Of a stretch of 64,000 bases of DNA, positions 32,108 to 59,339 are shown piece by piece; the first letter of the stretch is position 1, and each line of letters opens with the position of its first letter. Source of the stretch: Marsupella aquatica (lineage: Eukaryota; Plantae; Marchantiophyta). The notes below the pieces were generated by a model. The model saw only the letters and a program-made list of their open reading frames with translations, ran no database searches and had not been told where the DNA came from. Made by a program: the position numbers and the translations under genes. The stretch is from assembly GCA_973895155.1 (NCBI GenBank), contig OZ316894.1, positions 15,554,699 through 15,618,698 on the forward strand, in the 5' to 3' direction.

Positions 32108-32944
32108 CACTAGTAGAAACCGGGGGGTATTTAGACCCCATTAAACGACTATTCAGTACCGTATAGGACTTGGAAACGATTGGGAAGGACTCCAGTCCTT
32201 TATAGGACTGTGAGTCGTATGTTTTGTTACTATAATCAACTGAGTCCTTTATAGAACTGGTTTATAAGTCGTTTAATAGACTGGATTTTCAGTCTATTTT
32301 AGTCTTTGTGTGGGTAGCTTTGGTGAGTCGTTTTCAGTCTTTTATGGGCTGAGATGGTGAGTCGTTGGGAACGACTAAAAAGGTTATGGAGGGTAGTCTT
32401 TAAATATACTTTGTGGGGTATGTATAAGTCTTTCATGTCAACTGGATATGAGTGATGAAGACCCCACTATACTACTTGGAATGAACCCACTCTTGTGCAC
32501 AAATAACATATTGCATTCATGTTTTATTGTGTACTTGGAATGAACTCACTCTATAAGTTCACCATTCATCATGTTAACATTAGAATACATAATTTCAGAA
32601 AGCCATCTTCTATACCATGTACACTAATATGAATTCACAGATTCAAACTTCATAGACTACAAAGAAGGTCACAAAGTATTCCTCTATACCATACACACTA
32701 ATACTGAAATGATACAAAACAGATTCAAGTATCATAGACAATCACCATAGAGCCATAGTTTGACATCAATCACTTGTTTCATACATACAGAATTCAGAAA
32801 TATCAATGTCACACACAACGGCTCCTTCATCCTCTTTACCAAATGGAAAAATTGGTACAGATATTTCTTGGATCTTTCCAAGGCAATGTCAAAATGTGAC
32901 ACAATTCACATGATTCTATCTACACTTGCATTCAGTCACTGCAG

Positions 32945-35900
32945 ACTAACACACTCTGATGGCCAGAGCACAAGAGATCCTACTGCATCTGCAATTATTT
33001 CCTGAGGTGGATCATCGTCTCTATTCGGAAATGGCAAATTACAATCAGATACAATCACTGTAGTCAACAACACTACTACATGGTCATCCGGGACCACTTT
33101 GCCATGGAATTTTGCATGATCCGGTCACAAAATGCCTGTACCCACACATACCTGCGAGTCATCCTCCCATGATAGAAGATTATGGACTGGCTCTGCTGTG
33201 GCTATCACCTCCACCTTACCCTGGCTATTTTTCTTGGCTTTCCTGGGTGGCTTATACATGACATTATTCATACCTTGGTTGCGAGTCATGACTTTGGCAC
33301 GAGTGTTTTGTGCTGGTGATCGAGAATTGGCTACACTCTTCTTCAAAGAATCTGCATCCATATTTGACACTTCTGATTGTGTAGCAGGATTTCCCTGCGA
33401 CATCATCTCAGTATCTGCCAACATTGTACTTGCTTCAATTGAAGCATCTACAATCTTACTTGCATCCAATGTTGCTCCCAAGTTTCGAAGTCGCTTCACC
33501 CTGCTCCCACTTGGTTGAGAGTCTGTCAACTCTGCATCAACTACAATTCAGTGTCATGTCCAACATAAGTCAATCACTCATCACATGTGCTAAATGTACA
33601 TGTCACCAACCACAAAGTTGTCACTATCTCCTTACCATTATGAACAGCCTTCTTCCCCTTCTTTGCCATTGCCATATGCTCCATGTCTGCTTCTGTTGAT
33701 CAATAAACACACCACAATATTCACGTTGAATCTATTAACCACTGAATTGTTGCTCACCATTCATATAGAGGAATTTAAAGCATCAGCTTACCTGATACCT
33801 CCTTGGCTATGGTCACTGAGGCATTGGGCACATCTTCTTCATTATTGCTCTTTGAATCACCTGATACATCAATCATGATGTCACTTCAGATCCCAGTTCA
33901 TCCAACCAGTTCTTACAGAAAAGATTACCTCCAACCGGCTTAAGCTTCACAAAACTCCATGCACTTTTCAAATGTAATGTACTGGATCATAGCAGGTTAC
34001 CTGTCTCAGCAACCTTCTTGCCCTTCTGCTTACTGATTACAGGGTCCTTCTCTGCCTCCACTCTTCCTGCATTCAAACCATTCACTCAATTCATGAAAAC
34101 TTACTTCTAACATTTGAACATAGGACACAATGAATAATGGGCCGGTGTCATTTCCATACCTGTGTCAGATTTGCCAATTCCCTTTTTTGTTAACAAGGGC
34201 ACACTTTGTACAATGTTGCCCTCATTGTTTGGTTGGGAACCACCCAATTTTTCAATCACAAGCTTGAAATTAGATTCCACTGATGCAAGAAGGTTCGCTA
34301 CAGATGCCTCCACAATATCCAAACGATCAACCAATTTACTTTCCACTCGAGGGAGTCCACACTCTAATGACTTCAACCGTTCACACATCTCTGTGAGAGT
34401 TGTAACAGTTCCCTGTCATAACACAGCTTACATATCTCAGATAACTGTCCCCAAGAACTGGTTGCTTACTTCCTACTACATTTCTTTCTGATGCTCAAGG
34501 CCAAATAGTCACAGAACATACAGAATTACAACATAATCACCTGTTTGGAAGTTACACTTGTCACCTCACTCCTTTGTTTCATGAACTCCTCTCTCACTTC
34601 TTGTGCTGATGGTTCTTCACCTGTCAATTTCTTCTGCAGTCCACATCAACATACATATGAATGAAACCAAGTGTTGATTGTCAATGAAAATGTAATAATG
34701 GTAGTAAGATGATAAGTTTGAGGCTTACTATCAGGCATGTCACTGCCTTACCAATTGTTCTTTCACTGGAGCATAACTTCCTCTCCCAGCCTGTGAAAGG
34801 TGTTTCACTTTGCCTCGAGCATTTGACATCAGTTCACTCTTGCTCTGTCCAGCCTCCGACATGAACCCTTTGATTAACCGTGTCCATTGATCCAGTTCCA
34901 ATGATGGGGGTGGTGGCATTCTCCTGTTAGAACCATTGTCTATCCACATCCTTTTCAACCTATGCCTCTCTTGTTTCAAAATCCTCATTGCATAATCTGA
35001 TATGCAATCTTCAACTGGGCCCTTACCATCATTACCAACATACTCCCACCGTTCAAGAATGTCCTTGCAGATAGCAGCCCAATCAGCTTTGTTCTGACTC
35101 CTAAACTCTGTAATGCTCAAATCTAACCAACGCAATACTTCTCCTCTTAGGTCAGAATGCCAACGGTTCTTACCATCACATGTGGGAGTTATCCAACCTT
35201 CGGAATTCACTTCTACTTTACCAAATTTGTTACTGTCTCTTGCCTTGGTACTCCCTGAAGCGCTACTAGGTGTCCCTCCACGGCCTGGTGTCCCCCCATG
35301 GCCTGGGGTCCCTCCACGGCCTGATCTCCCCCCACGGCCTCGATTGCATTGTCCAAACCTCCTTGGAGTCCCTGCACATTTACAGGATCCATTTACAGTC
35401 ACTTACATTAGGTAAGTATGAATCATAAATCCCGCTGCCAAATATACAGTGGACTTCAGAGCAATTATGCAATGACCAAGTTACCTCTCCCTTGGCGCAT
35501 AGATGGTTCTGGACCACCTATCCTATTGCTTTGTCTTGATGAATTAGGGGCGTTTCTCCCGCCTGTGAATGATTGCCTCCTATCTGAACGTGGATGGCCT
35601 TTGTTGTTTTCGTGATTGTCCCAATCAGAGTCTGCATACCAACAGGTACATGCCACACTCATGGACCTGTAAGATAAACTCTTTGCCCTAGCTACACATC
35701 AGATAAGTGCATATTGAGCTAAATCTCTACTACCATCACAAAATCACTAGCACAAGGCACTTACTTGTCCAATCATCCTCCTCACCTTTCCATTGCCCTC
35801 TGTACCCGTCTCTACCACGCTCTGGGTGTTCATATTCATCCCATCCATCTTCTGCTCCATCATAGTCATCATCATAATCATCAGGCGTCCCTTGCCAATA

Positions 35901-36107
35901 ACTCTGGCTCCTTCTAGGGTATGGATTATGTGATTTCTCTCTAGCTGCCCACCTACCTGGGACTTGATGAGGGCCCTGTGCATCTTGCACAGGTGCATTT
36001 TTCTGTGAGCCCCTTGCATCTGGGTCTCCATCCATATCCAATCTTTCCTCTTCACCCCACTCTCCAAGCCCCATGTCTGTCTCCATGTCATCACCCTCTT
36101 CCCCCAT
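32945..36107 (-). pseudogene. tnpA: CACTA-C TnpA-like multi-exon gene
   Basis: Exons include 35736-36107, 34740-35370 (W.RLIK.F.SEAGQSKSE.MSNARGKV...GRGSY, Ptta/En/Spm-like), 34107-34410 and 32945-33529 (VCVGTGIL*..FHGKVVPDDHVVV..LPFPN). Confidence 0.75.
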
Positions 36108-36284
36108 AGCTTCTGCACAGCACCCACAACCAAACAGGGAGAATCAGCACACTAAATTCAAAGTATCAATCAATTTCATGCATATCCAACTATCCTAAAC
36201 ATCATTCCAGGCAGCAATTCCCGTTCTATGACTCTGTGCAGGTAGTCATCCTCAACCTCATACTTGCCAATCGCCAGCTGTTGC

Positions 36285-39200
36285 CTATTGCAAATCATCA
36301 ATCTCATCATATTCCATTTGCCCAGGTTCATCATATGTCTCTCTCAATGTTAAGGGGATGTAGTCAGTCCCTGCCCGAGTTGGAAGTACAGTCTCATGAC
36401 TAGGATGCTCGAATGCAGCATGGTCATCCAAACTGAACTCTACTTTACTTCCATCCATCCGCCTGTTCCGTGCTTGGCTATGGCATACCACCCTCCAGCC
36501 ATGTGACTCCTCCACATCTGCAAAGAAAGCCTGTTCAACTTGGCTAGGGAAAACAAAAGGCTCAGACCATTCTGGTACTCTGGACCTAAAATTGGCCAAC
36601 AAGAACCCATCATGATCACTCTTCATGGTGGCCCTTGGTCTCTGCCACTCTGATTTCACCCATGATCCCTTCATCAATATCACTGGGACACTTGTGTTAC
36701 CATAATTCAACACCCAAATGTCGGTCAACTCCCCCACGTAACCCATCTTCATCCACCCCCTCTGTTCTTCAGAGGTTCTCTGCTCAAACACAGAAATCAA
36801 ACCACAATCATATGATACACAATGGTCACCCTGCTCATCCCTCACTCGATAATGATTTCCATAAGCTCTCATCCGTTTGTAGGTCAGAATAGACAATCGT
36901 GGTGGCACAGATAGAAGATACAAATCCTTCTCCATATCTGGGTGATGTCTACTATGCTCTCGAATTGTCACCCGAATCCACTGCTCGAACTGTGGGAAGG
37001 GATCCTGCTGCCCAGAGTGTGCAGCTTTTTGCATATCATATTCCCTGCAATATGAGGTACAGGCATAGTTAGGTCTAAACAACACATGACAACCTAAGAT
37101 CACCCTTGGAACAGACAAGAAGCATCACAACAAAGGCAAGTCAATTCAATCACTCACCTCCACCATGGTTGCATAGGCTCTGTGTTTGCCAGCACATATG
37201 AATGAGCCTTGTCTCGAATCGCAACAGGCAGCTGAACAGCACGTCCCACACCTTCAACAACCTCGCCACTCACTCCATCATCTTCACCAGATTTCCAAAC
37301 TCTTGTCATAGCTTCACCAGACCCAGCCATGTACTCTGTTAGGAATCCCAACGTCTCATCCTTAATGTACCCCAATGCCATGGAAGCCTCTGGCCTGTAG
37401 TATGTTCTCACATGACCTTTCAACAACTTCATGTATCGCTCCATAGGGTACATCCATCTGGTACTGACTGGCCCATACTGCCCTAGCTCTTCTACCACAT
37501 GGATTAGGAGATGAGTCATAACATCAAAGAAAGCAGGGGGGAAGTATATCTCCAAGTCACAGAGGACATAAGCAGCATCCTGCTTCAACTGCTCCAATCC
37601 TTGGGGATCCCACACTTTCACACATATACAGCGAAATACATTGCACAGTCAAAGAATGACATTACGGATTGGTTTCTGCATGAGACCTCTGAGGCATAGG
37701 GGCAGAATGTGCTGCATCAACACATGGTAGTCATGTGTTTTCATACTGCCAAGTTTATTCTTTGTAATATGCTTCTTGAAGGCACCAGCATAGCCAGAGG
37801 GCACTTTCAGACAGCTCAATCTATACAAGAATGTCTTCCATTCATCCTGTGTGCACACATAGGGAGCTTGGAACTTGAGAAGTACATTGGGATTGCTTGC
37901 ATGGGGCTTCAACCAAAGGTGAGGGCGAATCCCCTTCTGTTGCATATCAGCTCGAACTGCTCCTGTATCTTTCTCACCCGACAAGAACTTCAGCAAGCTC
38001 TCACAAATATTTTTCTCAATGTGCATGACGTCCACATTGTGTTTGCTGGGCTCGAATTCCTGCACTCCACAAAGCAAAGAATTCAACAACAGAAACACTA
38101 ATTAACCACATAGGAGGATTGTAACCAACATCAATCCACCATTGCTCCAATCTAAAATTGCAATCATACAGGGGCTGGAGGCTAAGTACATTACCCTCCA
38201 GTACTCCAACTCCAAGTCCATCAAGGTCTGTCTTTTCACACCGTGTTTCACCACTGGATCCTCAGGTTCTCGATCAGTGGCACTTCTCTTGTCCCAATCA
38301 GCCTTCCTGGCTGCCCACCTCAGGACTTGCTCTCTGGTGACCCTCTGTGGTGGGCCACAAAGCTCTGTTTTGTTGTTGAAGTGTGCAATTTGAGACCGTG
38401 TGTGCCTGTAAGGATGATCAACAGGCAGATACCTTCTATGCCCCTGAAATTTCATACTGTGCAGGGCATGCGACCACTCACTTGTCACATTTTTCCCACA
38501 TGGTGTGCACCCCACATAGCCCTTTGTCACTCATCCAGATATGATGCCATGGCCTGGGTAATCTGCTATATCCAGCAAACAAATTGCATGCAGTCTAAAG
38601 GGGCTGGGTTGAAGAAGCCCCTTCAGAACATCATGGGTTAACACCCCTTCTATCCACAAAGTCTTCCACTCTTCCACTGCTGGAGCCAACATGATATCTA
38701 TGAATTGCTCGGTCACAGAAGCTGGTCCAGGGATTAACAGCACCATCATGACAAAAAACCTCTTTGTAGTCATCCATGGGGGAAGGTTGTAATTTAGCAG
38801 CGTAACCGGCCAACATGAATAACGGTTGTTTTTGTCTCCAAATGGGTTTACTCCATCCAGTGATAGACCAAATCTAAAGTTCCGCTTCTCTGCAGCAAAC
38901 TATGGCCACCTCTCATCAACAAATTTCCAATGGTTGGAATCTCCAATGTGACGCTGCAGGCCATCACTGCTCTTGTTATCAGGAGTCCATGTCATCAGCT
39001 TGGAAATGGCAGGGCATCTAAACAGACGTTGTAGTCTAGGAATGAGAGGAAAATGATGAAGAACCTTGGCAGGGTGTGTACATTTCCCTACATTCTTGTA
39101 CCTGTGCTTACCACAATGAGGGCATGTCAATTTATCTGCATGCTCTTTGCGAAAGAGAACACACCCATCAGGGCATGCGTCAATAGACACATAGTTCAGC

Positions 39201-39985
39201 CCAAGGTTAGACATCAATTTCCTAGCCTCGTACATAGTTTTTGGAATTGAATTACCATCTGGTAACACATTTCGGCGCAGGAAGGTCAACAACTCTGTCA
39301 CAAATATATTGGGAACATTGTGATTGCCACAGATGTTCAACAACAACACGACAAAACCCAGCTTGGAGCAGTTCGACCCCTCGTAGATAGGAATGCAAGC
39401 TTCTTTGATGTGTTTTGGGCCCCCAAACACCCACTCCCTCTCTGCTGCACCTTCCCCAATGTCAAAGTCAGGTTCAGCTTGGCCGTCGCCAATGTGTGGC
39501 TGCGGTTCATTGTCCTCTTCTGATTCCACTGTGTCGTAAAAAGCATCAAGGTCTTCAAAAATCTCTTGAACCATTCTTGGGACATCCATCCCACCGTCCT
39601 CAGTGACTGCCTCTCCATCTCCATCTTGGTCATCCACGTTCTCATGTTGGACCCCAGGACCATCATTTGCACAGTCTATGTCCTGCTCTACGTAGTCTCT
39701 ACGCCTAGCTGTATTAGAATCCACAAAGTCAGCTCTCCACTCTTCATCAGAGGAGTCTTCTTCTGCTGGTACATTCCAAACCCTCCACCGAGGGTGCCTT
39801 TCATGCCGCAGCAGGTGAAGGTGCACAGTGTTCAAACTCAACGACTTGAATCCTTGGCACTGTGTGCATGGGCATCTCATCCTCCTACTCCTACCTTGGG
39901 CGGCCCGGGCTTGTTCACGCATCCACAATTTAGAATCATGATGCCTAATCCTAAATGGGTTGTGAAGAGGCAACCTTGGAGCCAT
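36285..39985 (-). pseudogene. tnpD: CACTA-C TnpD transposase
   Basis: MRCPCTQC...HLLRH, IDACPDGCVLF, HFPLIPRLQRLF, LSLDGVNPF, NLPPW, DYPG, DVMHIEKNICESL, PPAFFDVMTHL, WMYPMERYMKLLK, EPFVFPSQVEQAFF. Nonsense codons at 38900, 38531 and 37649. Confidence 0.93.
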
Positions 39986-40311
39986 CACTATACACACGCA
40001 CTCAGCACCCTGTCATTTTATTATGCAAGTGAAAAATACACTTCCTGTTAAGGATTTCACCCCCGACTGTACTTGCCAAAATACGTAACGTTCCAAAAAA
40101 ACAAAAAAACAAAAAATATAGGTGCCTGAGTCATGTACCTATTCTCAAGTGAATGAGACAAAATTCCTAAATGTTTGAGGGTGTCAACTCCTCCGCTGTC
40201 CTCACATGTACTGCCTCTGCACGTACATCCATGACCATATCAGAGTCCAATCATGTATAGTCATAGACACAGGTGCAAGGTGCGAGACCGGTGTGAGATG
40301 TCCTCATCTTA

Positions 40312-40881
40312 CTACCACATCAAATACGGATACCAATCCTGTTGTCGATGCCACTCAGCCCTGAGGTACTCAGGCATGTACATTAAGTCATCAAGGTCTA
40401 AACCCTGCTCATGCCATGGTGGTCTTCGATCTGTGCCTACAAGCAGTGGCAGCAGTGCCCTCCATGGTGCACATGTTGCTACCAAGTCCCTCCACTGGGT
40501 ACTAATTAGTCTATATTTGCAGATATCTTGTGCGCCAGACACCACAAGAACCCTCGGCCAGACATGTGTAAGAACTATATCATCTGCCAAATCAGGCAAC
40601 AAGGAACCACCTACAGCATCGTGCTTGTCTAACTCATCTGCTGAAAAGTAAATGTCCTCTTCCAACTGTGCATCCTCATTCACCACAGCATTCACAACAC
40701 ATCCAAGGTCTGCAGGCATTATCTCGGATGGAGCTACACTCTGTCTGGTTACCAATCCACACAAGTAAGCCCAAGCAGTAGCCATGCACGATGCAACCCG
40801 TAGGAGGACCCTACATAGGGCCTGACGGTCTGGAAGAGGCAGCATACCCACCAAAGTCTTCAGCCAAATAGAGCCCAGCAA
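40312..40881 (-). CDS. F-box-like small protein (CACTA-C cargo; probable ATG at 40719)
   Basis: SLLPDLADDIVLTHVWPRV.....ICKYRLISTQWRDLV fits the F-box pattern LP.LPDD......RV......R.VS..WR.L. Confidence 0.55.
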   Translation of the reverse strand: MLGSIWLKTLVGMLPLPDRQALCRVLLRVASCMATAWAYLCGLVTRQSVAPSEIMPADLGCVVNAVVNEDAQLEEDIYFSADELDKHDAVGGSLLPDLADDIVLTHVWPRVLVVSGAQDICKYRLISTQWRDLVATCAPWRALLPLLVGTDRRPPWHEQGLDLDDLMYMPEYLRAEWHRQQDWYPYLMW

Positions 40882-41021
40882 GTAGATTCACAGTCACACC
40901 CCACGCAGCAGGAAACAACAATCACTTCAACTGTGACCAACCATGACAAGATGAGTTAGTTCAAGGATCACATTTATTACAAAATTGTGATTTATACAAA
41001 AATATGAGGGACTCCTACTCC

Positions 41022-41888
41022 TCACTCTCTCCCACCTTTGCTAAGCATACATCTCCGCTGAATCTTGGAGGGCCAGGCCTCAAAAATATCAAAGTCCCAA
41101 GCATTCTGTCGCTTCCCTCTAGCTGCTGATTCCAGAAGCCAATCAGGGGAAAGCACCCAAAGATTGTTGTTCATGACAAAATCACGCACTGTTGTCTTAA
41201 AGAATTTTCTGCATATTTTCATGTATGACAGACCTACAACATGAGTGGAGGTTTCTGTTAGACTCTCCTCCACTGTCCCACCTAGCTCAACAACTATAGA
41301 CTTGTACAGTCTGCACTTAGTCTCCCCAATTCCTTCTTCTGCAAATACCACACTGAACCCCTTCATAATGGTATTTCTCTCCTTGCCATGCTCATTCAAT
41401 ATAGCATCTGCACGCATAGGATGGTGTCCTATGTTGACAACAGGTCCATATTGGACAGAAGCAAAGTTGGGTTTCTCTGCCGCTGCTTCATAGGCTTCCT
41501 TTTCAGCCAAAGCCTCTGCAGTGGCCTCCTTGACACTCTCCCACAACTCATATTGCTCAGTACTCTGTACACACCTATGTTTAACAGAATCGGTCAGCCA
41601 AGAGACTTCAACTACTTTTAGACCTTGGTTGGTAATGGCAGAATCAATGAAGGACCATGACCACTTGTTCATCACATCCAGCCATGTCCCCGCAACAACA
41701 TGTGTAGTCTGTGGAGTGATGTCCTTGACTTCAGTCCCATGAAACTCTGAGAATCGTTTTTGTACGATTGGCCAACTCACTTGGGTGAACCCATAGTGGC
41801 CAGGAATCAAAATGGCTTTGATTCCAGCCAACAGAGGTGGGTGGTCAACCTTTGTACGTTTCCTAGAGGCCATGTACACACGGGCCAC
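41022..41888 (-). CDS. two-BRCT-domain protein (CACTA-C cargo; probable ATG at 41873)
   Basis: HGTEVKDITPQTTHVVA...KVVEVSWLTDSVK and LGGTVEESLTETSTHVV...VLSPDWLLESAA show the G-G..THVV..W..D/ES BRCT signature twice. Confidence 0.8.
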   Translation of the reverse strand: MARVYMASRKRTKVDHPPLLAGIKAILIPGHYGFTQVSWPIVQKRFSEFHGTEVKDITPQTTHVVAGTWLDVMNKWSWSFIDSAITNQGLKVVEVSWLTDSVKHRCVQSTEQYELWESVKEATAEALAEKEAYEAAAEKPNFASVQYGPVVNIGHHPMRADAILNEHGKERNTIMKGFSVVFAEEGIGETKCRLYKSIVVELGGTVEESLTETSTHVVGLSYMKICRKFFKTTVRDFVMNNNLWVLSPDWLLESAARGKRQNAWDFDIFEAWPSKIQRRCMLSKGGRE

Positions 41889-42471
41889 CTAATCACTGCA
41901 GACCGGAAGATAATGCGTTCACCTGATAATCGGAGGGCCCTTAAAATGCTGCGTTTATAACTTGGTCCAGTCCAGTCGTCTGGTGAGTCTCTGCTCCGAT
42001 TCCAAACGGGAGAAATATTGGGACAAACATACTAGACACCTGCAAGCATGCACCTCATAGTTTGAATATGTGCCTTCACAATATTGAAGGTGACAAGTGC
42101 AATTGTTTTGTGATGCCACATACAGATGTTGTAAATGGGCAGACATTCAATGAGAATACAAAATGTTGGTACACTTTAAGGGAATTCTCGCAAATTAAAT
42201 AGCCTTGTAACTTATATGCTCATAATGAGAAGTCCTGATTTAATTTAAGCAGTGTCATGTAAGTCGTGATCAAAATGATTGCAGAGTTAAAAAAGTTCCT
42301 AGAAGGCTTAAGGGGAGTTTTTGAAGGCATGTACCCAGGAACAAGTAATGAACTTAGGGTACTTGTTGCCTAAGCATCCTCTCCTACAGAGGTCCTTCTT
42401 CTCAAAATTGGAATGTGTGCAATCTCCAAGGTATCCACATCAGGTGCACTATGCATGTACATTATTCAGGT

Positions 42472-43152
42472 TCAAAGCCAAGAAATGTGATCTCTCATGG
42501 GAGTGTGCAAAGTAGGATCTATGGCATGGCGATGACAATAGAAGATCCATCGATCAACACCATGTGCAGAGTGATCATAGATGTGTCTGTCACAAGCATA
42601 GCCTTCTGCTTGACGCTCCTTCAAACAATGAAAGTGCCACATGGTGGGACACCTAACACAGTGGACTATGTCCACCCAGAAATCTTCATCGTGCTGACCA
42701 CATGCCTTGCACTTATGAAGTGGGCAAGCTGTGGCAAGATCGGGCAAACATGAAAAACAAAAGAACCTCACACAATATCTGTCAGGGCATTTCCTAACAA
42801 GTGGTGGAGCATCAACAGAGCCCTCATAAGACCCCAACTTCCCACACTGTGCACACTTAGCCTGCTTCTCCAAACAATCAGTGCACATCCAGCCTCCCTG
42901 GTGTGCTGACGGGAGGCCCACCCCTGGACAGTTGTTTTCTGCAGCAAGGTCAGACTCCGGGTTGAGGTGGAAATGCCTCATGCAAGGGCCCTCACATATG
43001 GCTAAGCCACCACCATCGTCACAAATGGCACAACAATGAGCTGCCTTCTGGAAAATCTGACTTGCGGAGAAGTTACTACCATCTGGCCCAACTACACCTG
43101 TGTTGCTCACCTCTGTCCCCCACTTCTTGGCTAGGATTTTAGGGCGTGCCAT
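42472..43152 (-). CDS. EDM2/NSD-type composite PHD-finger protein (CACTA-C cargo)
   Basis: CAICDDGG.LAICEGPCMRHFH...C..C....C..CGKLGS...C...C...CPLHKC..C...C.RCP..WH..CL...IFYC..H.IDP.L.TP.RDHI follows the PHD cluster of plant EDM2. Uninterrupted 226-aa ORF. Confidence 0.82.
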   Translation of the reverse strand: MARPKILAKKWGTEVSNTGVVGPDGSNFSASQIFQKAAHCCAICDDGGGLAICEGPCMRHFHLNPESDLAAENNCPGVGLPSAHQGGWMCTDCLEKQAKCAQCGKLGSYEGSVDAPPLVRKCPDRYCVRFFCFSCLPDLATACPLHKCKACGQHDEDFWVDIVHCVRCPTMWHFHCLKERQAEGYACDRHIYDHSAHGVDRWIFYCHRHAIDPTLHTPMRDHISWL

Positions 43153-43392
43153 GCCTACGCATGAGACAGATAGTACAATTTAGCAGAGTGCACAGACAAT
43201 ACAATTTAGTGCAGTGTACAAAAAGTATAGTGTAGCATATAGACTAGAGTGGCAATTGCTACTGCAATGAAATGTTCACACACATGTGCAGAGTAGACAT
43301 ACTTTTTGGTTTGTTGAGCCCACACTAAAAACTGATCCCCTCGTACAATAGCTCCACCTACACCTCAATTTTGTGGCTATGATTCACCAAAG

Positions 43393-45095
43393 GAGATCTG
43401 CAACAAGATTTAATGCATTTGAATCACATATAACAGTCGTGACATGTAAAACAGGCATTTTTTGAACAGGATTGGTATCAAGCACTGTGATCAGGGTTGT
43501 AATTTATACATCCTAAATAGGCTATGATAGTGAATGAGACAAATAAGTTAGGCAGAAATCACTTTTTCCAGGTTATCACATGGCCCATTAATTCCAGTCT
43601 TTGAAAGGAGACTTTTAAGTGAGCTTGCTAGCCTCTTAAATTAGGATATTGTACTTAGTGCAGCCATAATAGGATAAGTTATGTACTGTTGACCCTAAAC
43701 CTTGGACCCAAAATTGGTCATAATTCAAAATCTTAAGTAAATATCCTCTCTGTTCAAGTCAAAGTGTTAAGTTATAGGTCAATGGTCTCTGGTTTGTGCA
43801 TGCGGTGTGACAAGTGGTCCTCTAGAGCGTGTGATCCAAACATGTGTAGACACCTTGGAGGAGTTTTGTCAAGCAACAGGGATGGTAGTCAACCTCAAGA
43901 AGACCAAGTGTTTGGGCATTGGCACACGACAAAATCCAGAGCTCTACTTCCAAGGGAATCTGGTGGAATTTGTGAGGACCTACAAATACCTTGGGGTGGA
44001 GTTCTCTCAAAACTTGAGTTGGGCCTCATGTGTAAAATCTAGGGCTGCCAATGGGTACAGAGCTTTTTATGCATTCATGAACAAATGCAAAAGAGCTGGT
44101 CTACACACTTGGAGGTTAAGGAAACATCTCTTTGGAGCTTTGGTGAAACCAGTCATTCTTTATGGAGCACCAATTTGGGGAGCAGGTGTGTCTAAATCTG
44201 GGTGGCAACAGATTGAGGGGCTGCAAAAGCTATTTCTTGAGATGGAGCTTGGGATCAAGTCACAAACCCCATATGCACTTACACTTGCAGAGGCAGGCTT
44301 GTTTCCTTTGGAGGTGGAGGCACTCTTCCACACACTCAAATACATCATGCGTGTAAGAGAGTTGGAGGAAAACAGATTTCCTTTTCATGCCTTGCGCTCA
44401 TCTTTAGCTACAGGGTGGTATGCAGATGTGTGCAGGTGGGCCCATGCTTGGGATTTTCCTGAACATGAATGGCCAACACACCCAACCAAGCTAAGAGCAA
44501 AACTTGAGCAAATGGCTTTGCACAAACTTTGGCATGAATCTAGGCCACGGCAGCAATACTACATGAGAGATGTGAACCCCATGAAGAAATATCGAGAACA
44601 AGAATACTTATCTAGCACTATCTCAGTACAACTTAGACAACTTATTGCTCAGTATAGACTAAGCTCACACCACCTTGAAGTAGAACAAGGGAGATGGAAG
44701 GATATTGACAGGAAAAAGAGGGTTTGTCAACTATGTGATAGCTCTAGTATAGAGAATGAATATCATGTATTCATTGCTTGCAAGTTTTATGAGGGGGTTA
44801 GGATGGCATCTCAAATCTTGGTGAAAGATTTGTATGCATTGTTTGGTCTGCCCCCTCAGCAACTTGGAAGATATATCTTTGCGGTGGATAGGGAAAGGAG
44901 AATAGGTTTGGAAAATCTTTCAGGGCTCTCTAGGTCCATAGTTTCTTTGAGGACATAGTTGTCCTCTTCTGAGCAATCTCTTTTGGTTGCTCTTTTCTTT
45001 GATTGCATTGTACTTTACTTTTTGTGGCAGCTCCTTTGACTTTCATGGTCCCGGAGCTTATAATACATTACCATTACCATTACCATTACCATTAC
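43393..45095 (+). mobile_element. 5'-truncated RTE/RTEX-like LINE inserted in CACTA-C, with (CATTAC)5 tail
   Basis: RT C-terminal ORF; tail at 45066-45095. Candidate TSD CACCAAAG (43385-43392 and 45096-45103); the alternative CAAAGTG at 43760 would move the 5' end. Confidence 0.65.
43807..44958 (+). CDS. LINE ORF2 C-terminal fragment (RT thumb region and CCHC finger)
   Basis: LEEFC...GMVVNLKKTK, YKYLGV, LVKPVILYGAPIWG, RLSSHHLEVEQGRW, CQLC....ENEYHVFIAC. Starts downstream of the YADD motif. Confidence 0.85.
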   Translation: MTSGPLERVIQTCVDTLEEFCQATGMVVNLKKTKCLGIGTRQNPELYFQGNLVEFVRTYKYLGVEFSQNLSWASCVKSRAANGYRAFYAFMNKCKRAGLHTWRLRKHLFGALVKPVILYGAPIWGAGVSKSGWQQIEGLQKLFLEMELGIKSQTPYALTLAEAGLFPLEVEALFHTLKYIMRVRELEENRFPFHALRSSLATGWYADVCRWAHAWDFPEHEWPTHPTKLRAKLEQMALHKLWHESRPRQQYYMRDVNPMKKYREQEYLSSTISVQLRQLIAQYRLSSHHLEVEQGRWKDIDRKKRVCQLCDSSSIENEYHVFIACKFYEGVRMASQILVKDLYALFGLPPQQLGRYIFAVDRERRIGLENLSGLSRSIVSLRT

Positions 45096-45516
45096 CACCA
45101 AAGTGACCGGTGGTGGGGTCTAGGAGGGCAGGACAAGTGACATCGCCAGGCACACTGCAGGATGGCGAGTGGTTCCAGATGATACATTGTGCTCTGTGAA
45201 AAAACCGACATCCAAGAGAACGGTCATCCAACTCTAGGCCAGAAGCCCTACAGGCAGGACAGTCATATTGGCAACTGTGCACACACCCTTGGGCCCTAAT
45301 TTGTGGCGGGTCATGTACTAGAGAGAGAAATACCAAGGATGTTGGGAAGGGTGGAGAAGCAGGTACAGGCCGGCTGTAGTTGTTCCTGGCAACAACTGGG
45401 TACTCAAAGTACCATGCAGACTGGGCTGGAAGGATCCCAAGTCTGACATACTCAAGGCGCAACATCTCTGCCTTGCGTGCAAGCCGCACATGTTCAGCGT
45501 TGCGGGTCCTCACCAT
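45058..45516 (-). CDS. small Cys/His-rich hypothetical protein; the GN repeat at its end derives from the LINE tail
   Basis: ATG start MVRTR; C.H.C..DC..C...C...H...C...H...C......C. Same strand as the other CACTA-C cargo. Confidence 0.4.
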   Translation of the reverse strand: MVRTRNAEHVRLARKAEMLRLEYVRLGILPAQSAWYFEYPVVARNNYSRPVPASPPFPTSLVFLSLVHDPPQIRAQGCVHSCQYDCPACRASGLELDDRSLGCRFFHRAQCIIWNHSPSCSVPGDVTCPALLDPTTGHFGGNGNGNGNGNVL

Positions 45517-48500
45517 AAGTGTTGCTTTTGTGGAGATGTCGTGTGTTCACGTCCTCTGATAAGCACCTTCGATCAGCAAGGTGAGCAGGAGCTGTACTTG
45601 CCTCACCAACAGCAACCAACCTTAAATTATCAGTTCCCACTCACTGTGTCATTCCATTGGTTCCAGCTAGGGGTCACAGTGTAAACATAGCATCAAACAC
45701 TCCTAATCAACTTGCTTACAAACTACAATATCCAGAAAGAGTGAAAGTCTCACCCTCCAGTGAGCAGCAGAGAGGTAGTTCACTAGATGTGTTGATGTGC
45801 AGTTAAACCTCCACTATTGCTTACTTCTGGTGTATGCTGCTCAGAAGAAGACATATTAGTAGCAGCAAATTGCAAATAATGGCCATAAGCAAACCGTGAG
45901 AGTTTGCAGAATGCTACGACAAATCCATCACAGCAGTGCTCCACAGGAATGAAACCAAGCAAAATTTGGTGACCTCGGCCAATGACAAGGCCAATGTAGT
46001 GAACAATCCTTGACCGATCAGGATATGGATTGGAATTACAATTAGTCAGCTCTTCTTCTTTGTTTTCTAACTTTGGGGGAAATGAGCATGACCAGGGAAT
46101 TCTCTGAGAAATAGAAGAATCGCTAAGTACAGTATTCTTAAGAGTAGTTTTGTTCTAATTCTGAAATCTACACATAGGACATTTATCATGAAAACTGAAG
46201 ATCCATTTGACAACTCCATGATAGCCTATTCCGCATTGTGTCCGCCCCATGCAAGCAAGGGGTATTCATCCGAGCTTAGTCTAACCATGAATGATTGTTC
46301 TGGAAGTAGTTGCGACAATGTTTTGGTTTTTTTCTCCTATCCAACTCAATAGCTCACAAACATGGCATTGGACCCATTAACAAATTATACTTGCCATCAT
46401 TCTCAACTGTATTACATGGCCCACACTGCTGACATCCCTGACTCTTAAGGGAAACTCATCTCCTGGGCCAACAACATCTCAGATTCTACAAAAATGAGAA
46501 ACTGTGAAAACTTCTTGATCTCCTATCCTGTGATTGTAGCATGTATGATTTGCTGGGACTGCAGGCAGTTCTGGACCTTGCTGCGCTTTATATACAACAA
46601 CAACCTGAGCTCCATGAATTTGTTTTTAATAGACGTGCGTTTGACCACGGCTACAACTCCAAAACAATCACCAAATCAAATCATAACAAAACCCACTCGA
46701 AAGCTGAACACTAGAACACTGGGAACACACTCAAACAGGTTCTGCAAGGATGGCTCTCTGTCGGATCGGCTAGAGAATCAGGCAGGCTTCCTATTATGGT
46801 CTGCTCAGAGCCTTCCACTCTGGATTAGACTCTGAATCCAAATGCGAGTCTACGCTTTCCGTTGCTGGTCACAACGACGGGCAATCAGGATGATGCCATG
46901 CCGAGTAGAAGAACAAGAAAGCATTCCATAAAAGGCACTGAGATGAACCGTATAGTAAAAGTGGTAGTACTTTCGGTAGCACGACCGACTCGCTATGTGA
47001 CAGTCCGAAGAAAAGCTAAAAGGCTGAAAGGCGATAGATTTTGTGCTCAATGTGACAGGTTTTTTGAAATGATCAAGCCAAGGTGCAAAGGAAAACTGAT
47101 TGAAGGTGACATGGGAAAGTTGTCAATGCAGGAGAAACTCTTGCCTTAGAGTAACCGTGTAACCAGGTAACAATGCAGGAGAAACTCTTGCCTTAGAGTG
47201 CTCGACGCTCCTTCAGCTGGATAGGGGCAGCTCCAACTACACGGTCTGGTCCAATCACCGCCTGCTTTGTTACAAGAAGGTGGACTAAGCCACAGCTGAC
47301 GTCAATCACACTGTAAAAAATGGACAGATGAGCCATGTCACGAAAGCATATATAGTCATTCCTCAATATTAAATGAGACTATGAGAGGGCATATATAAGT
47401 TCACGACTAGGAAAGAGTCTCACCTTGTAGCACGGAGATTCTCAAAGCGCACCAAGATGAGTCATTGTAGCAGGTGAATGTTGGGCGGTGTCATGTAAGG
47501 CGCAAATCAATAGCTCGCTGCCTCCTGTCTCCCCGTCTGTCTCCCGTGCACTTCTACCTCCCCGTCTGGCTTCCCGTCTGTCTCCCACGTACTTAAATTG
47601 AAGTTTTAACAAAAATTGTCAACACCAAGTGCATCAAATGCCAACATATTCACACGGCAGAGCATAAAAGTAGTCACAGTTCATGAATCAGTTCCCTATC
47701 GAATCATGGGCACTACGCCGAGCACTGCGCAAGAGACTAGGATAGACACTGCAAACATGGGGACTTTTGTTTGGCAAGAAATCTGGACATCAAACCTTCA
47801 GCAATGGCAACAGGAAGCATTACATCAAACGAGAGGACATCAAATGAGCAGTCCGGTTATAGGCAAACGGCGACTGACATAGCGGAGGGAAAAAATGCGC
47901 ATTGACATAGCGGACATGCGCACATTGACATAGCGGAGGGGAGAAAAACTACAAAGCCAACTAACCTTTTTAAGGCCCACAATTTCAAGGGGAGGGACAA
48001 AGAGAGCAAGCACTCCAATCTCTTCAATCCCTTCTGCAAGTAGCCGCCAAAATCTACTTCTTGGGGTCCAGCCCATGGATGGAGATCATGCAAGGTGGTC
48101 AATCACAGTAAGTGCAATCGTTGCAATCCACAAACAAGCTACAAATGAAGACACGCAGGAGGGAAAGTCCGCAACACCAACAACATTACCCTTTGTAAAA
48201 CCCCGAGCTTATCTTCTAGTTGCCAACGCTCAAACAAAACCTGCTCGGACACTACCAAAACCCTAATTCCATAAGCTCTCACCTTTGCGACACAACTCCT
48301 GCACTATATTCAGCTGGCGTTGGCCCACTCTAAGCTCCCAAGCTTCACTTTAGTCCGCGCCGCGACTAAAGTTTCACTGCCTCTGTGAGCTTCGCAGTCC
48401 ACCTTACAGATCGAACAAAGCAATCACCTCCCTTCACATCCGCACTAATCACCTTTCGCAAAGAGTTGCAATCACCTTCCGCAATACTAGGAAGCTTGCT

Positions 48501-49584
48501 CCCTCTCGTTCAATGCCTTCTACAGCATGAGCGATCACCTCTGCCGAAGCAACTTCAATCGAACACACAGCAACGGGGCGGGCAGCGACAACATTGACAG
48601 TGAACGATGGACTCTACTCAAACAACCTCAAAGCTGTCACAAAAGAACGAGGAAACATTGAGGCAGAAAACAAAGTCCCTAGCGCCAGGCAACCAAAGTA
48701 TCGGGAAACCAAAGGATCGGGACCAAAGGAAGGGACGACATGCCATTCCAACAACGGGAAGGGGGAACGGGATGCGGGAACGGGCAATTTTTTGATGGTG
48801 GGGATGGATGCCAACGATCCAATGGTCCCTAAACCCCCATCCCCTTAACATGCAACCCCCGACCCTTCACATCAAACCCCCCCTTAACCCCCTTTAGTGA
48901 AAACCCAGCCACCCCCTAGCCTTGACATATAAACCCCCTAATGTGCTTAGGACAACTCGACTGTGGCCACACTATGTTTGCAATGCCAGGGTCATCCATT
49001 TAGAGCGCCGCTTGCAAGCTTTGGCTCTCAAGATCCTCCCAAGGCAGCAAACAAGTTAGGGTTCACGGTCCATGTTCCTTTACCCTAAACCGTTGCGTCA
49101 CTATTTCAATCGAGTGTTCTTCGGCTGGACGTGCCCCTTTACTGACCCACACCCCCTTGAGACCGGTACAAATCTACCTTTGTGCATCTCGGCCTTTTAT
49201 AGATGGATTTAGTAATGGCCAAGAATATGTTGACCATCCCTCTGTAGTCCACCCTCCATGAACCTCACTTCATTAAACCCAAAATCTTTTTGGTCACAAA
49301 ATAAGGCCATTTAATGAGTTATGCCCCTTGCTATCACCCTCTTTATAGAATTACCCCTCCTCAGCATAAGTGGTCATTACCCATGATGTGCTAGACTATT
49401 CATCCTTCACAAAGTAGCAAGGTTACTTTTCATAGTCTTTTAGTGAACCATAAAACACTAATAGTCTTTTGTAGTCTTCAACAAAACCGGTGCAATGGGT
49501 ATGAGTTGTTTTAAGTATGGAAAAAGGACTTAGTGGGCTTAGTCCTATAAGGTATGGTCTAAATTGCCCCGGTTTCTACTAGTG

Positions 49585-50113
49585 CACGCTCATCACCAAA
49601 TGGCATGTCAAAGGAGGAGAATAGAAGTGGGTCAAACCTCATCTCATGCCCCATGCATGGAAAGAAACTTTGTATGCCCAATATAAATAATCTTTCTAAT
49701 CCATGAACAATATATGGCCATGTCCTCTAAGCTTGGGCCACAAGTAGAGCAAGCTTTGTACCCCTGAGTTTGCAATCCATAGACAAAACCAAACCCTGCT
49801 TACACAGAAGAAATCAAACCATGCAAACTTTATGTTAGGGTTGTCACATGAGAAACAACAATAGGAACTACACATTATCGAAGGGTTGCAAATGGCATGG
49901 AAGTCATCAAATGGCATAGTCATGCATTGTCCAACAAATGATCCCTCTCAATTGAAAGACACGTGGAAAACCTCCTGTAATTTTCCTGCCATCATATGCC
50001 CACACTCCATCCCATAATTTTTGAAGTTCTCCAACCAATAGTGCCAAGTAAGTGTCAAAGTTCTTCACCTTTTTTGGACCTGGGATAATCAAAGACAATA
50101 AAAGGAACCCTTT
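49585..50113 (-). pseudogene. tnpD: CACTA-B TnpD, middle fragment (Transposase_21)
   Basis: KGFLLLSLIIPGPKKVKNFDTYLALLVGELQKLWDGV...FQLRGIICWTMHD. Cut at 50114 by the LTR. Confidence 0.88.
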
Positions 50114-53100
50114 TGTGATGCCTAGACAGGAATCACTCGGCCAGTTAAGTAGGTAAAGCAGGAAGGCACCCTAGGAACACCTTAGTATAGGGACAAAACA
50201 AGGAAAATATAAACCATTAGGGGCAACCATGGAACCCGGGCCGAGGCCGGAGGTAAGGACGCTGAGGGTGAAAACTCGATTAGGGTTAGGGTGCGTCGGC
50301 GGCTAGGAAGGATCAACGGGAAGAAGGACCGGCAGAGGAGAGGGGTAAGGAGCGCTTGCGGGAGATGGTGGCTCATTTGCGAGCACGAACTAGGCAGACG
50401 ACTACGGGAGGCCAACTACTGTCAGCTACTTAGGCAAGCACTCGAGGAGAGAGTAGATACCGACGATCGACCTAAGGAGGGTATGAGCAACGTCAATCAA
50501 GCGGCACATTTCTGGGGATGCCTGTTCGAACGGGCAACTGAGTACATCAAGACTTACGAGGACGAGGAATCAGAAAGGGCAGCTCGAGAACGGCAGGAGC
50601 TCGCTCGATTGTGGGAGCTGCAGAAGACGGCTTTCTTAGGAGGCGAACTCATCAAGGACGAGTTCCTGTGGACTCCTACTTCCAATCAACTCGACGATCT
50701 TCTGTTTTGCAAAGACAGTGTCGTCGGCATCCGAGAGGCCATCAAGAACTGCAACGACATACACTGGGAATTAAAGGGTAGCACGGAAAGGTGGACCCAG
50801 GCAACGGTGCTAGGAGAAACCTCCACGGCAGCAGAGATGAAGAGGAAGGGAGCCGTCAACGATGAAGCCACCCCGGCAAAAAGAACGAGGTCGGCGGCAC
50901 CAAAGAAGTCAGCCGAGCAGCAGAGCAGGAGGCAGGGAGAAGCCGAAGAGGAGGAGGTCGATCCCATCAAGGCCATTCCAACCAGGGATGACACCTGGAA
51001 GGGCTGGGCGGCAACCCTACCGGTGGAGGTGCAACTACATTTTGCACGGGAGGAGGATGCATGCTTCACGGCCATGCAGACCAAGAAGTACCAAGGCTTC
51101 ATGGCCGGATCCGGCTTAGAGGCCTTTGTAAGATTACCATGGCTGAAGCCGGAGGTACCGGAGTCAGACCTATTAGAATTCGTGGGGTCATGGGAACCCG
51201 AGACCAATTGCACGAGGATATATGGGAAGGATTTCTATCTTACTCCCAAGGTAATTGCCGAAGTGTTTGGCTTGCCGATAGGCAATAAGACCAAAGTTGA
51301 TACCAGGAAGACCTTGCTTGACAAGGAGTTCCGGTCGTTCCCCGGGCCATCAACGAAGAATGGCTTCTTCCGGAACACCTGCACCAACCCGCACATAGGA
51401 GAGATGATCGACTTCTTGCGGGTGACCATGCATTGTAACTTGCCGAGGGCAGAGATCGGCAAGGCACAGGTCTATCTGGCAGAAAGGCCAGACCCAAGCC
51501 GGGACTACAACGGGTATCTCCTCAACCAATTGAAGAAGATCTTAAAGGAGGAGCAGCAGGTAATCGGCATGGGGAGCGTGTCGCGGCTTGGCTATCACAT
51601 GCCGCTGTTGTGCCGGTATGCCAGAGGTCAGACTTTTGCCCCGGTACTTCCCCTGCAGGTAAGGGCACCCGAGGAAGCTCCAACGCCGAGGCCGTTGGTT
51701 GAGAAGCCTCAACCACCTGTTAGCCCTACGATCGAGCAGGTGTTTAGGCCCAGGAAGGAGGACTTGCCAATGCAGCAACCAGGCATGCAGAGTCTGCTGA
51801 AACTACTGGAGAAAGAAAAGAAATCGGCATCGGCAACAACAACGGCAACGGCAATAATGCAGGACACTACTACAGAGGTAGGCCTACACCGGCTCACAAG
51901 AGAAAACCCCTTTGCTGGAAACAAGGAGAGAATCAGGCCTGAATCCAAGCCAGGTGTTCGAATGTATGTGGGAATCTCAAGCTCCGAATCTGAGGCAGAA
52001 TTGCCTGAAGCTCCTACCGATGAAGAGGAGAGGGAGAAGCCGGACGGCCAAGAAGTAGAGGAGGCAGTGGAGGACTGCAGCCATGATAATTCCGGCTATG
52101 GGTCGGACCATCACGTCCCAGGAGTAAGGACCTGTGGCCGGTTTGTCCCCACACTTCCAAGGGTAGTGCGAGGGGACCCCAACCAGCAGAGTAGCCCTGA
52201 GTCTCCCCCACCAGATGTTGCTCCCCCGAGCTTCGACGGCATAAAACAGACGGTGCAGGAATTTCAGGAGCGAATCAAGCAGGAAGAGGAGGCAGCCCTG
52301 GCTAGGGAAAAGGATTTACCAGGAGGAGATTGGCCGGAGGACATCAGGCGGCTAGCCAAAAATGGAAGCAAACCTCTAGCCACGATTGAAGAGATCCGCA
52401 GGACGGCTTGGGAGCAGAGGCCGCGATGGGCGATGCCGATCACTTCTACTTACTCCACCTACGCTAAGAATAGAGCCATGGAGTATGGTGAGATGTGTGG
52501 GGAACTTGCGCTCGGCATCTTTGGAGAGGAGTTGGAGGTAGGACCCTTTTTCCATAGGGAGCAGTTGGAGAAGCACCAATTAGAAGAAGCGGTGGCTTTA
52601 GAGAGAAGCAAGAAGGATGAGGTCATTTGGCGGCTTAGGAGGATGGAAGCCGAGATTGAAGATCTAAGGGCGGCCAAGAAAGCCCAAGATGAACTGCGGA
52701 TTAAACGACATGAGCTGAACATCATGCAGGGGTAGTTGGACACCGCGCAGGCTGATAATCAGAATATCAAGGATAAACTGACTCAGACGCAGGGAGAGTT
52801 GGCCGACACGATCAAAGAGAGGGAGAAGTGGAAGCAAGAGCTGAAGAATACAGAGGAGGCCCACATAACAGCCAACAGCCGGGCCATGGCGGAGACCCAA
52901 AGAAAGGAATGGGCGTTGAAGGGGGAGCTCGAGAAAATCCGCGGAGCCCTTGAGCAGAAGGAGGCCGAGTTAGGGAAATCCTATCAAGGGATTATGGCGC
53001 TGCAGCAGGAGCTTGCGTCCCTGACGGCCAGCTTCAAGGCCGACCTAAGGGAGAAGGACGAGATGCTCGAACAGACTTACGCCAAGATGAACCAGATGGA

Positions 53101-54747
53101 GTCTGTCATCATTGCAGAGCTCGACAAGGAGCTAAGAGCAACCCAGGAGGAGAGGACTACCTTGAAACAAGAACGGGAGGAAGCCTAGAAGGAACTAGAG
53201 GAGGCACGCAAGGACCTGGATGAGACCCAGGAGGAGTTGGAGGAAATCACGAGGAAGATGGAGAACCTCCAGCGGCGGGCCGACAACCAAACGGAGCGGC
53301 TGAAGAAACAAGCCGCAGTATTTAAGTGCTTGTCTTCATTAGGCCCAACTCCAATTGGGGCAACCAAGTTACCAGGAGTGGTACTGGCCAAAGAAAAAGC
53401 CGCGCCACCTGCACCAGTGCCGGAAGTAAGTGGGAAGGGGAAGGGACCAGCTGCCGAACCAGAAAAGAAGAAAAAGCGGAAACCTTTAGGGTCAAGGAGT
53501 AATCCGACTCCACAAGCCGTGGTGACCAAGGAGGTAGAACCAGCACCATCCTCCGGCATGAATACGGCAATAGATCCCGCTATCATCACAGGTGGGGGTG
53601 GTGCGGCCCAAGCCGAACTACTCAGTAATGAGGCCGGTATCCCAGATCCGCCTCTTGAGCAGGCCGGGGAGACCGTAGCCGAGGCTGAGGCCGTAACCGG
53701 TTCCCGAGCCGATGCCGACGCCGATGGTGGACCCAGTCAGGCCGATGGAGAGTTGACTCAGTCAAGGGCAGGTAATCTGTCAGAGAATGAGCCTACGGCA
53801 ATGGCTGAGGAGGAAGCGTTGGGGGCGTCCATTAAGGATCCACCATCGGTGTCGTGACGGTGCAAGGGCGCCGTTCCTTTTAGGGAGGGCGGACGTGGAG
53901 GGAGGAGGCGTGAGTGGGCAGGGCGGGCGCTGATCTCCAAGTTTAGGATTAGGATCAGGACCAGGAGCGGCCCTGACACTTAGCTTAGTGGGATTGCGGT
54001 CCCACTGGTAGGAGCAACACTTGTGCTCCTGCCTTGCTGTACATAGGTAGATTCGGGCAAGTAGATTACTGTTAAGTAGATTAGGCTTACGATGCAAAGA
54101 ATGGCGGATCCACTACCAGGATAAGTACCTGGGCAGCGGGGAGCTCAGGGCCTCTTCTTTAGCAAGTTTTTAGTTTGCACCAGCCGGGCTGGGATCAAGT
54201 AGTACGAGAAGCTCTCGGTTAGTCATACAGTGACCCTTGTGTATATTCATGTTTCCTCATGCCTAAGAGCTGAATAGAGTTGGCCTCACGGCTTAGTTCG
54301 CAGAACTTGTGTATGAGATGTACTGTTTGTATGGCAAGTGCATGGTATGACTCAGTCAGAATGAGTCATTTTGCTATTTGTGTGTCGCATTAACTTGTGT
54401 GAAGAGTGCCCACATCAACCAGAAGGAAGGAAAGTAAGCAGGGGAGTGAGAGTTGGATGTGTCGAGCTGAGAGAGGTCTTAGCGGCTTAACCAAGCCTAT
54501 TGGGGATCATTTCGGCGGCGGAATCCAAACATACCTAACAAGACGGAGGGGAAGACAGGGGAAGGCCTAGATTAGGCCGGCTACGTATCTCATGACCCGA
54601 TGAAGGATCTGTCCAGTATATGTGTGTAAAATGTTAATAGTAGTAGTAGAAGATTAGCAGCGTCCCATGCCGCTAAGCCACGGAAACGGCCTCGCCAAGC
54701 GCGAAACCTGCGGGAATCGGCTTGAGCTGGGGGGTTTCTTGGGTTTA
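50114..54747 (+). mobile_element. giant LTR, copy 2 (independent insertion in CACTA-B TnpD), interrupted ~21 bp before its end by gypsy G3
   Basis: Starts TGTGATGCCTAG as copy 1 does. Colinear with copy 1 up to GGGTTTCTTGGGTT(T/C)A. No PPT upstream. Confidence 0.88.
50483..53857 (+). pseudogene. LTR-internal ORF, copy 2 (1,125 codons from ATG, two internal TAG)
   Basis: ORFs 50291, 52736 and 53237 share one frame. Homologous to 19206-22664. Confidence 0.85.
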
Positions 54748-59278: not shown

Positions 59279-59339
59279 CGCGTGACTTGTTAGCTCCGTA
59301 AGCTCAGTGAGAATCGTGTTCCATAGTGAACTAGGGCGA

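Follow-up and report, generated by a model that had tools for sequence, protein, structure and literature searches.

What does a CACTA transposon do with four extra genes beside its transposase? The question is raised by a 64,000-nucleotide stretch of the Marsupella aquatica genome (contig OZ316894.1, positions 15,554,699 to 15,618,698; hereafter the window), in which a 17,477-bp element carries, upstream of its tnpD gene, open reading frames (ORFs) for a PHD cluster, a two-BRCT protein, an F-box-like protein and a Cys/His-rich protein. The original prediction, made without database searches, took this cassette to be one coherent toolkit for counter-silencing, target-site choice or repair of excision breaks. 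Our answer is tentative: we favour a dead copy of an apparently high-copy CACTA family, whose likely selected, trans-acting accessory genes would stem from anciently captured host domains. These genes are likely to be partly dispensable, and their products are likely to help the element, a multi-ORF CACTA, handle host chromatin. The features of the element are as follows, with positions counted from the first letter of the window.

32105-32127, unstranded: target-site duplication (TSD; CAC, 32105-32107) and terminal inverted repeat (TIR) starting CACTA at 32108; 3' end of the element in transposase orientation
32900-36150, minus strand: TnpA-like exons, limits approximate; Transposase_24 at E 0.014, under the cut-off, and translated similarity to the CACTA at 1667-6652
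36285-39985, minus strand: TnpD transposase with two predicted introns; Transpos_assoc, Transposase_21 (E 3e-35), DUF4218 (E 7e-28) and DUF4216
40312-40845, minus strand: F-box-like ORF, 177 residues from its first ATG (stop-to-stop from 40887), motif in the C-terminal half; weak Pfam match
41022-41873, minus strand: two-BRCT ORF, 283 residues, long linker predicted to be flexible, without a canonical phosphoserine pocket; Pfam, alignments and predicted structure
42472-43152, minus strand: EDM2/NSD-type PHD-cluster ORF, 226 residues, intronless, reader domain only; Pfam, profile search, alignment and tree
43817-45100, plus strand: nested, 5'-truncated fragment resembling a long interspersed nuclear element (LINE), limits approximate; open frame, CATTAC tail and zf-RVT at E 0.03
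45058-45516, minus strand: Cys/His-rich ORF of no known family, 152 residues; homologue, Pfam, NCBIfam and PDB searches
46079-48800, unstranded: variable 5' segment, in a minority of family copies; drop in contig depth in runs X1, X2, X3 and X5
49565-49587, unstranded: TIR ending at 49584 and TSD (CAC, 49585-49587); 5' end of the element, with empty-site loose ends

A scan of all CACT[AG]...[TC]AGTG pairs placed the element at 32108-49584, with TIRs identical at 13/13 and 18/20 positions and a CAC TSD. Its TIRs begin with CACTA and its TSD is 3 bp long, as in CACTA/EnSpm elements, and the TnpD domains are present. In two of four public sequencing runs (X2 and X5), loose ends at 49585 continue into the sequence left of 32108, which represents the empty site. 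The earlier delimitation of the element by TIRs and TSD is thus sound. The tnpD gene contains three in-exon stops (38900, 38531 and 37649), while a fourth, at 38102, lies inside a predicted intron; no intact transposase can come from this copy, which therefore cannot move by itself. The element interrupts the tnpD of an outer, older CACTA, whose frame is recovered at 49907-50170 and, by Pfam, at 30116-31581. Within the window, no cassette ORF is detectable in this outer element (30116-32107 and 49585-50170), nor is there a second set of the cassette ORFs anywhere else in it.

Between 40013 and 46100 the minus strand has four frames of 150 codons or more, far beyond the outcome of 300 shuffles, of which 288 gave no such frame, 11 gave one and a single shuffle gave two. 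The four ORFs thus exist where they had been placed, on the strand of the transposase. Their head-to-tail layout holds insofar as they are co-oriented, but they are not contiguous, as the plus-strand LINE-like fragment (~1.3 kb) lies between the Cys/His and PHD ORFs. Its open frame of 395 codons (43771-44958, plus strand) is stop-free and has no match in phage records or the PDB, and a (CATTAC)x5.3 tail occupies 45066-45097. We call the fragment LINE-like on the basis of the weak zf-RVT match, the tail and reverse transcriptase motifs. The Cys/His ORF takes its last ~12 codons, with their GNGNGN stretch, from this tail. The two Cys/His homologues end otherwise, with a Cys followed by an Arg four residues later, a spacing that appears in one reading frame just past the other end of the fragment. 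We infer from these features that the fragment inserted into the last codons of the Cys/His gene; the 5-bp direct repeat flanking it is by itself within chance. Its contig depth equals that of the rest of the element (1929 versus 1767-1817 in X1, 45 versus 39-62 in X5), so that the insertion probably preceded amplification of the family. The cassette ORFs might instead be alternative exons joined to a single leader; we rejected this as unsupported, since the upstream acceptor-like sites are ordinary (best rank 0.09 among 527 sites). A joint at 49076-49234 (CT..AC, minus-strand-compatible, side 28, in X1 and X3) is too weak for a splice call.

The presence of the cassette in other copies was assessed in 13 public runs, none recorded as RNA, of which 11 contain part of 40200-43700 and four contain at least half its words. 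Runs X1, X2, X3 and X5 represent three coded organisms, and X8 another. All 30 bins of 39600-49800 are covered in X1, X2, X3 and X5. The near-identical main contigs keep an even depth across tnpD, the spacers and all four ORFs, the depth falling only in the variable segment at 46079-48800. There it is about five-fold lower in X1 (~360 versus ~1800) and also lower in X2, X3 and X5. In 4/4 runs a joint going back 408 bp (47711-48118) suggests a tandem duplication in the variable 5' segment of other copies. The X1 main contigs, with depths of 1767-1929 and 0-3 differences per 288-664 bp (depth in X5, 39-62), are ~125 times deeper than the shallowest listed, which hints at the order of 100 family copies, depth not being copy number. 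Further deep contigs, at ~87-89% identity over the PHD ORF, the F-box/spacer region, the BRCT ORF and its upstream spacer, suggest additional subfamilies. X8 shows deep, mostly <95% matches in the tnpD, F-box, PHD and LINE bins, with little in the two PHD-flanking spacer bins and little over BRCT and Cys/His, and X10 has only shallow matches over the cassette. The cassette pieces in X7 and X11 are mostly read-length and near-identical, which suggests trace carry-over, and these runs were not treated as separate hosts. The cassette appears from these contigs to be family-wide and, as had been proposed, is not the debris of one copy.

The PHD ORF contains three NSD-type PHD matches in order, all under the Pfam cut-off (best E 1e-5), and matches the NSD2 (E 8e-11) and NSD3 profiles. 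It is colinear with a 1305-residue plant EDM2-like protein, to which it is 30% identical over 210 residues including the C-terminal TP-x-RDHI motif; this protein comes from a metagenome contig and owes its EDM2-like label to its layout (PMC7529245, PMC3776765, as far as the cited passages describe it). The call of an EDM2-like PHD cluster is thereby confirmed. This motif and the Pfam families of the element also fit a plant host. EDM2-like function, which the same prediction had attached to it, does not follow: the ORF ends directly after the cluster and is thus a reader-only fragment, in which the acidic, PGR and methyltransferase-like (ELP) domains of the domain list excerpted from PMC7529245 are absent. 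Among 112 candidates, in a search confined to proteins of 124-396 residues, we found five stand-alone homologues (81, 75, 54, 39 and 38% identity), four of which end at the same position. Cysteines are better kept than other residues in all five pairs, significantly so already at 75-81% identity (22/22 versus 162/204, p 0.008; 22/22 versus 143/198, p 0.001), and these alignments indicate that the zinc ligands are under purifying selection. In a tree the six short PHD proteins form one group, and three plant EDM2-like proteins fall outside it (100/100, with long branches flagged). Six plant transcript-like contigs (L001, L003-L007) encode stand-alone EDM2-type PHD-cluster proteins that lack the rest of EDM2, so that reader-only versions occur outside the studied CACTA family too. 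No relative of the PHD, TnpD or F-box proteins was found among viral contigs, and the single prokaryote-contig match of the PHD protein (L010) was judged to be chance.

Two BRCT stretches, the second domain identity to have been called correctly, match Pfam above its cut-off (E 6e-14), and the predicted structure contains two well-folded domains (predicted local distance difference test, pLDDT, mostly >90) joined by a linker, residues 136-164, with pLDDT <50; the predicted template modelling score (pTM) is 0.46. Phosphopeptide-binding BRCTs have the pocket motifs Ser/Thr-Gly and Thr/Ser-x-Lys (PMC10386641, in the passage cited). Both motifs, the first expected after beta1 and the second in alpha2, are absent from both repeats: in the alignment with BRCA1, a Tyr precedes the Gly and a Ser occupies the position of Lys1702. 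Across six full two-repeat proteins aligned, Ser/Thr-Gly occurs in one of 12 repeats, as judged by eye. The proposed reading of gamma-H2A.X is thus unsupported, the pocket being absent and the repeats being joined by a low-confidence linker. Phosphopeptide-binding tandems of the BRCA1/MDC1 type pack rigidly head-to-tail over a short linker; among the tandem BRCT structures listed by Foldseek none superposes as one unit (TM-score <=0.30, root-mean-square deviation 12-22), and the top match, 9cq3_f, is a chain of a non-homologous end-joining (NHEJ) complex that we read as Ligase IV. In the representative library 17 stand-alone homologues were found at E<=0.001, the best at 63% identity, and no relative was found among prokaryote contigs. 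Trp and Gly were kept at 26/28 positions versus 146/251 for other residues, with a bias in three of four pairs. The alignments show that the PHD and BRCT protein families were both under constraint, which does not imply where it acted, in the CACTA or elsewhere.

Small proteins with one or two BRCTs, unnamed and from metagenome sources (P0013, P0016, P0018, P0023 and P0031), form a wider family, ~28-33% identical to the protein of the window. A likeness to plant DNA polymerase lambda suggested this enzyme as the BRCT donor, as did the G-x-G spacing of the ORF, which fits residues named in the relevant passage of PMC10386641. The scores did not confirm this idea: Pol lambda (30.1 bits) scored below REV1 (37.8), BRCA1 (34) and PARP4 (32.3), and no single donor stands out.

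The F-box-like ORF owes its label to a motif that is plausible both here (E 0.08, 13.3 bits) and in 3/3 homologues (E 0.001-0.035, 14.3-19.3 bits), but under the Pfam cut-offs (20.5/24.3) everywhere, so that the prediction of an F-box stands only in weakened form. The motif is followed by only ~50 residues, and a match to FBXW11 is weak (E 0.67). Its three stand-alone homologues, among 105 candidates of similar length, are 51-55% identical. The Cys/His ORF has no match in Pfam, NCBIfam or the PDB, and its two homologues among 648 candidates of similar length, at 53-54% identity, share its start motif; its cysteines are not significantly better kept than its other residues (6/8, p ~0.2). For all four ORFs the nearest homologues recovered are likewise short proteins that stand alone, nearly all of them unnamed, with source labels going no further than 'hypothetical protein' or 'BRCT domain'.

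In the reading that we tentatively favour, the 226-residue PHD protein would bind nucleosomes through its EDM2-type cluster. As it lacks the rest of EDM2, it would act on the heterochromatin of the element itself, as an adaptor or a decoy, and would help the long transcription unit to stay expressed. The PHDs of EDM2 bind H3K9me2 (PMC7890070), and the AAE complex, in which EDM2 works, suppresses premature polyadenylation in heterochromatin (PMC7890070, PMC10852260), according to the passages cited. The two-BRCT protein may recruit DNA-repair factors to the breaks made by excision or insertion, as an adaptor that does not depend on phosphate and not as a reader of gamma-H2A.X. The F-box-like and Cys/His proteins would probably be optional, since action in trans would let subfamilies spread even with broken versions. 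Precedents for selected accessory genes of transposable elements (TEs) are VANC and KIU (PMC13317346, in part), and PHD fingers are common TE accessories (PMC8557442, in part). A bolder version lies on the unlikely side: that a land-plant CACTA lineage made the reader half of EDM2, the host's read-through factor for heterochromatin, into a stand-alone counter-silencing protein, carried with repair-adaptor BRCT and F-box proteins as a virus-like gene set.

Several observations weigh against selection for accessory functions within the element. The main family form has the Cys/His ORF cut by the LINE-like insertion, and a 43-nt deletion (40637-40679) frameshifts the F-box ORF in the main contig of X5 and a deep contig of X2. 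For the residue classes tried, conservation bias was found in none of the three F-box pairs and neither of the two Cys/His pairs. The acidic stretch before PHD1 of the EDM2-like protein is missing from the PHD ORF, and the structure model of the PHD protein is of low confidence (pLDDT 52). Stand-alone EDM2-like PHD genes exist in plants (L001), and the constraint on the homologues, which sit on contigs of 1-3 kb, may have been exerted within host genes or in elements of other kinds. The cassette is not covered from end to end by any listed contig, and its linkage in other copies is deduced from depth and overlaps. Among listed variants, 8/19 in the cassette ORFs are synonymous against ~26% expected, as are 7/17 in the presumably passive LINE-like frame; these tallies do not discriminate, because they come from few pre-filtered rows (40 of 836 and 40 of 334).

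The same observations bear on the alternative that survives best, which we nevertheless hold to be fairly unlikely: that the four ORFs are passenger cargo of a Pack-CACTA-like kind, small host or TE genes that were selected before capture and recently amplified as neutral baggage, like the LINE-like fragment. That fragment is equally family-wide and equally stop-free, two of the four ORFs are damaged in common forms, and plants have stand-alone PHD genes of the EDM2 type. The original prediction had contrasted the stops of tnpD with the stop-free ORFs. The three in-exon stops are real, but the contrast is within chance (p 0.20, or p 0.12 when the equally stop-free LINE-like frame is counted). 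Moreover, this copy is only ~0.5% from the main X1 contigs (nine differences over 1,783 bp in four contigs), which leaves too little time for stops to build up. A neutral-decay simulation gave probabilities of no stop from 0.001 to 0.11 and was given little weight, as the restriction of protein databases to open frames biases it. Of 114 indels 12 were shown, and the two of these that fall within ORFs each measure 3 nt, which speaks for the accessory-gene reading. Passenger status is at odds with the state of the cassette, in which all four ORFs are complete, intronless and co-oriented and mixed exon fragments are absent, with the deep diverged matches in X2, X3 and X8, which suggest that the ORFs reside in repeats of several ages, and with the retention of PHD cysteines, which reaches significance even between the closest homologues.

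A narrower role is also conceivable, in which the PHD protein, alone or together with the BRCT protein, associates with TnpD or TnpA and steers insertion into heterochromatin without any counter-silencing. The studied copy indeed lies inside another CACTA, and the long ORFs of the window have the look of TE genes. The H3K9me2 binding of the EDM2 PHDs (PMC7890070, in part) would suit such targeting, and TE accessory factors can modulate integration (PMC13547354, in part). Nothing, however, ties the PHD protein to the transposase; only a single insertion site is seen, and TE-rich surroundings are expected in a repeat-rich genome. We regard this explanation as quite unlikely.

Very unlikely, in our view, is the full toolkit as first proposed, in which EDM2-like read-through, a tandem BRCT that reads gamma-H2A.X and SCF recruitment form one required module. 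In its favour, the PHD and BRCT calls are borne out, as is the F-box in weak form, the ORFs keep a consistent order and orientation, and each of the four has conserved homologues. Against it, phosphoserine pocket motifs are absent in both BRCT repeats, whose linker is of low confidence (pLDDT <50; pTM 0.46), the EDM2 effector domains are absent, and broken F-box and cut Cys/His versions have spread. A coherent four-part toolkit is hard to reconcile with a main family form whose Cys/His ORF is cut by the LINE-like fragment and with the 43-nt F-box deletion in the X5 main and X2 deep contigs. Finally, we hold it highly improbable that these are genes useful to the host, or domesticated by it, whose position between CACTA ends is a coincidence. 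Purifying selection on the PHD ligands speaks for this, but the intact TIRs and TSD, the empty site and the deep, repeat-like coverage show recent movement of the whole unit.

The accessory-gene reading can be set against known systems, which are compared here as described in the cited passages of each source. Maize En/Spm and Arabidopsis EN/SPM share with the studied element the CACTA TIRs, the 3-bp TSD and a tnpD gene followed head-to-tail by a second gene, here a putative TnpA-like one (tandem layout, PMC13547354), but lack the four ORFs upstream of tnpD; the main text of PMC13547354 contains no mention of PHD, F-box or BRCT. The En/Spm families of Chondrus crispus that are enlarged to 16-20 kb and contain 4-5 ORFs are alike in size class and multi-ORF build (PMC6431247); the passage does not state the domains of their extra ORFs, and their cargo may overlap with that described here. 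In VANDAL/VANC and the Ulp1-carrying KIU Mutator-like elements (MULEs), TE accessory proteins, some of them with captured host domains, likewise counter silencing in trans (PMC13317346, PMC10398659). These belong to another superfamily, and VANC recognises DNA motifs, whereas the studied element has a candidate histone-reader domain.

Pack-CACTA elements also hold host-derived sequence inside CACTA ends (PMC13317346). Unlike them, the studied element is not transposase-non-coding in type, as it keeps tnpD and TnpA-like regions (tnpD being broken here), and its cargo consists of whole intronless ORFs that are only ~30% identical to the available EDM2-like protein. The PHD ORF shares with EDM2/NSD proteins the colinear three-finger cluster, the conserved zinc ligands and the EDM2-type C-terminal motif, and differs from EDM2 in its length (226 versus 1305 residues) and in lacking the N-terminal, acidic and methyltransferase-like regions. 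PHD is an accessory domain in CR1, Rehavkus, Chlamys and other Chlamydomonas TEs (PMC8557442), but in Chlamys the PHDs are inserted in the core protein, while the studied CACTA has a separate gene of the EDM2/NSD subtype.

Large multi-ORF En/Spm elements (PMC6431247), PHD as a TE accessory (PMC8557442) and anti-silencers made of captured domains (PMC13317346) are thus each already known, at least from the cited parts of these papers. A CACTA with EDM2-type PHD, BRCT and F-box genes was not found in the searchable literature, a scope outside which Repbase and most subscription journals fall. As far as those sources go, the anti-silencing proteins so far characterised in plant DNA transposons belong to the VANC type, which recognises DNA motifs. 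A histone reader derived from EDM2 and shared by a whole CACTA family would, if true, represent a different anti-silencing route, via chromatin marks. The element also gives a genomic context to unnamed families of stand-alone PHD, two-BRCT, F-box-like and Cys/His proteins. Should the genes be passengers after all, it is a case of intact-looking cargo amplified without function.

The window holds several other repeats. A second, short CACTA at 1667-6652, with identical 32-nt arms and an ATT TSD, contains TnpA-like remnants similar to those of the studied element and is likely non-autonomous. A tandem array of units of ~116 bp, each containing a near-palindromic CATTACTAGCGCC...GCTAGTAATG core, occupies 25279-26742 inside a pair of 67-nt inverted repeats (24021-24087 and 28082-28148), and related motifs occur at 17757 and 17903. 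Two copies of a 4.5-kb element, ~74-94% alike, lie at 18900-23540 and 50190-54750; it has a long coiled-coil ORF of 840 residues with no Pfam match. Finally, 56984-63999 contains what we take, from their motifs, to be Ty3-like gag-pol frames, followed on the same strand by an extra ORF of 788 residues.

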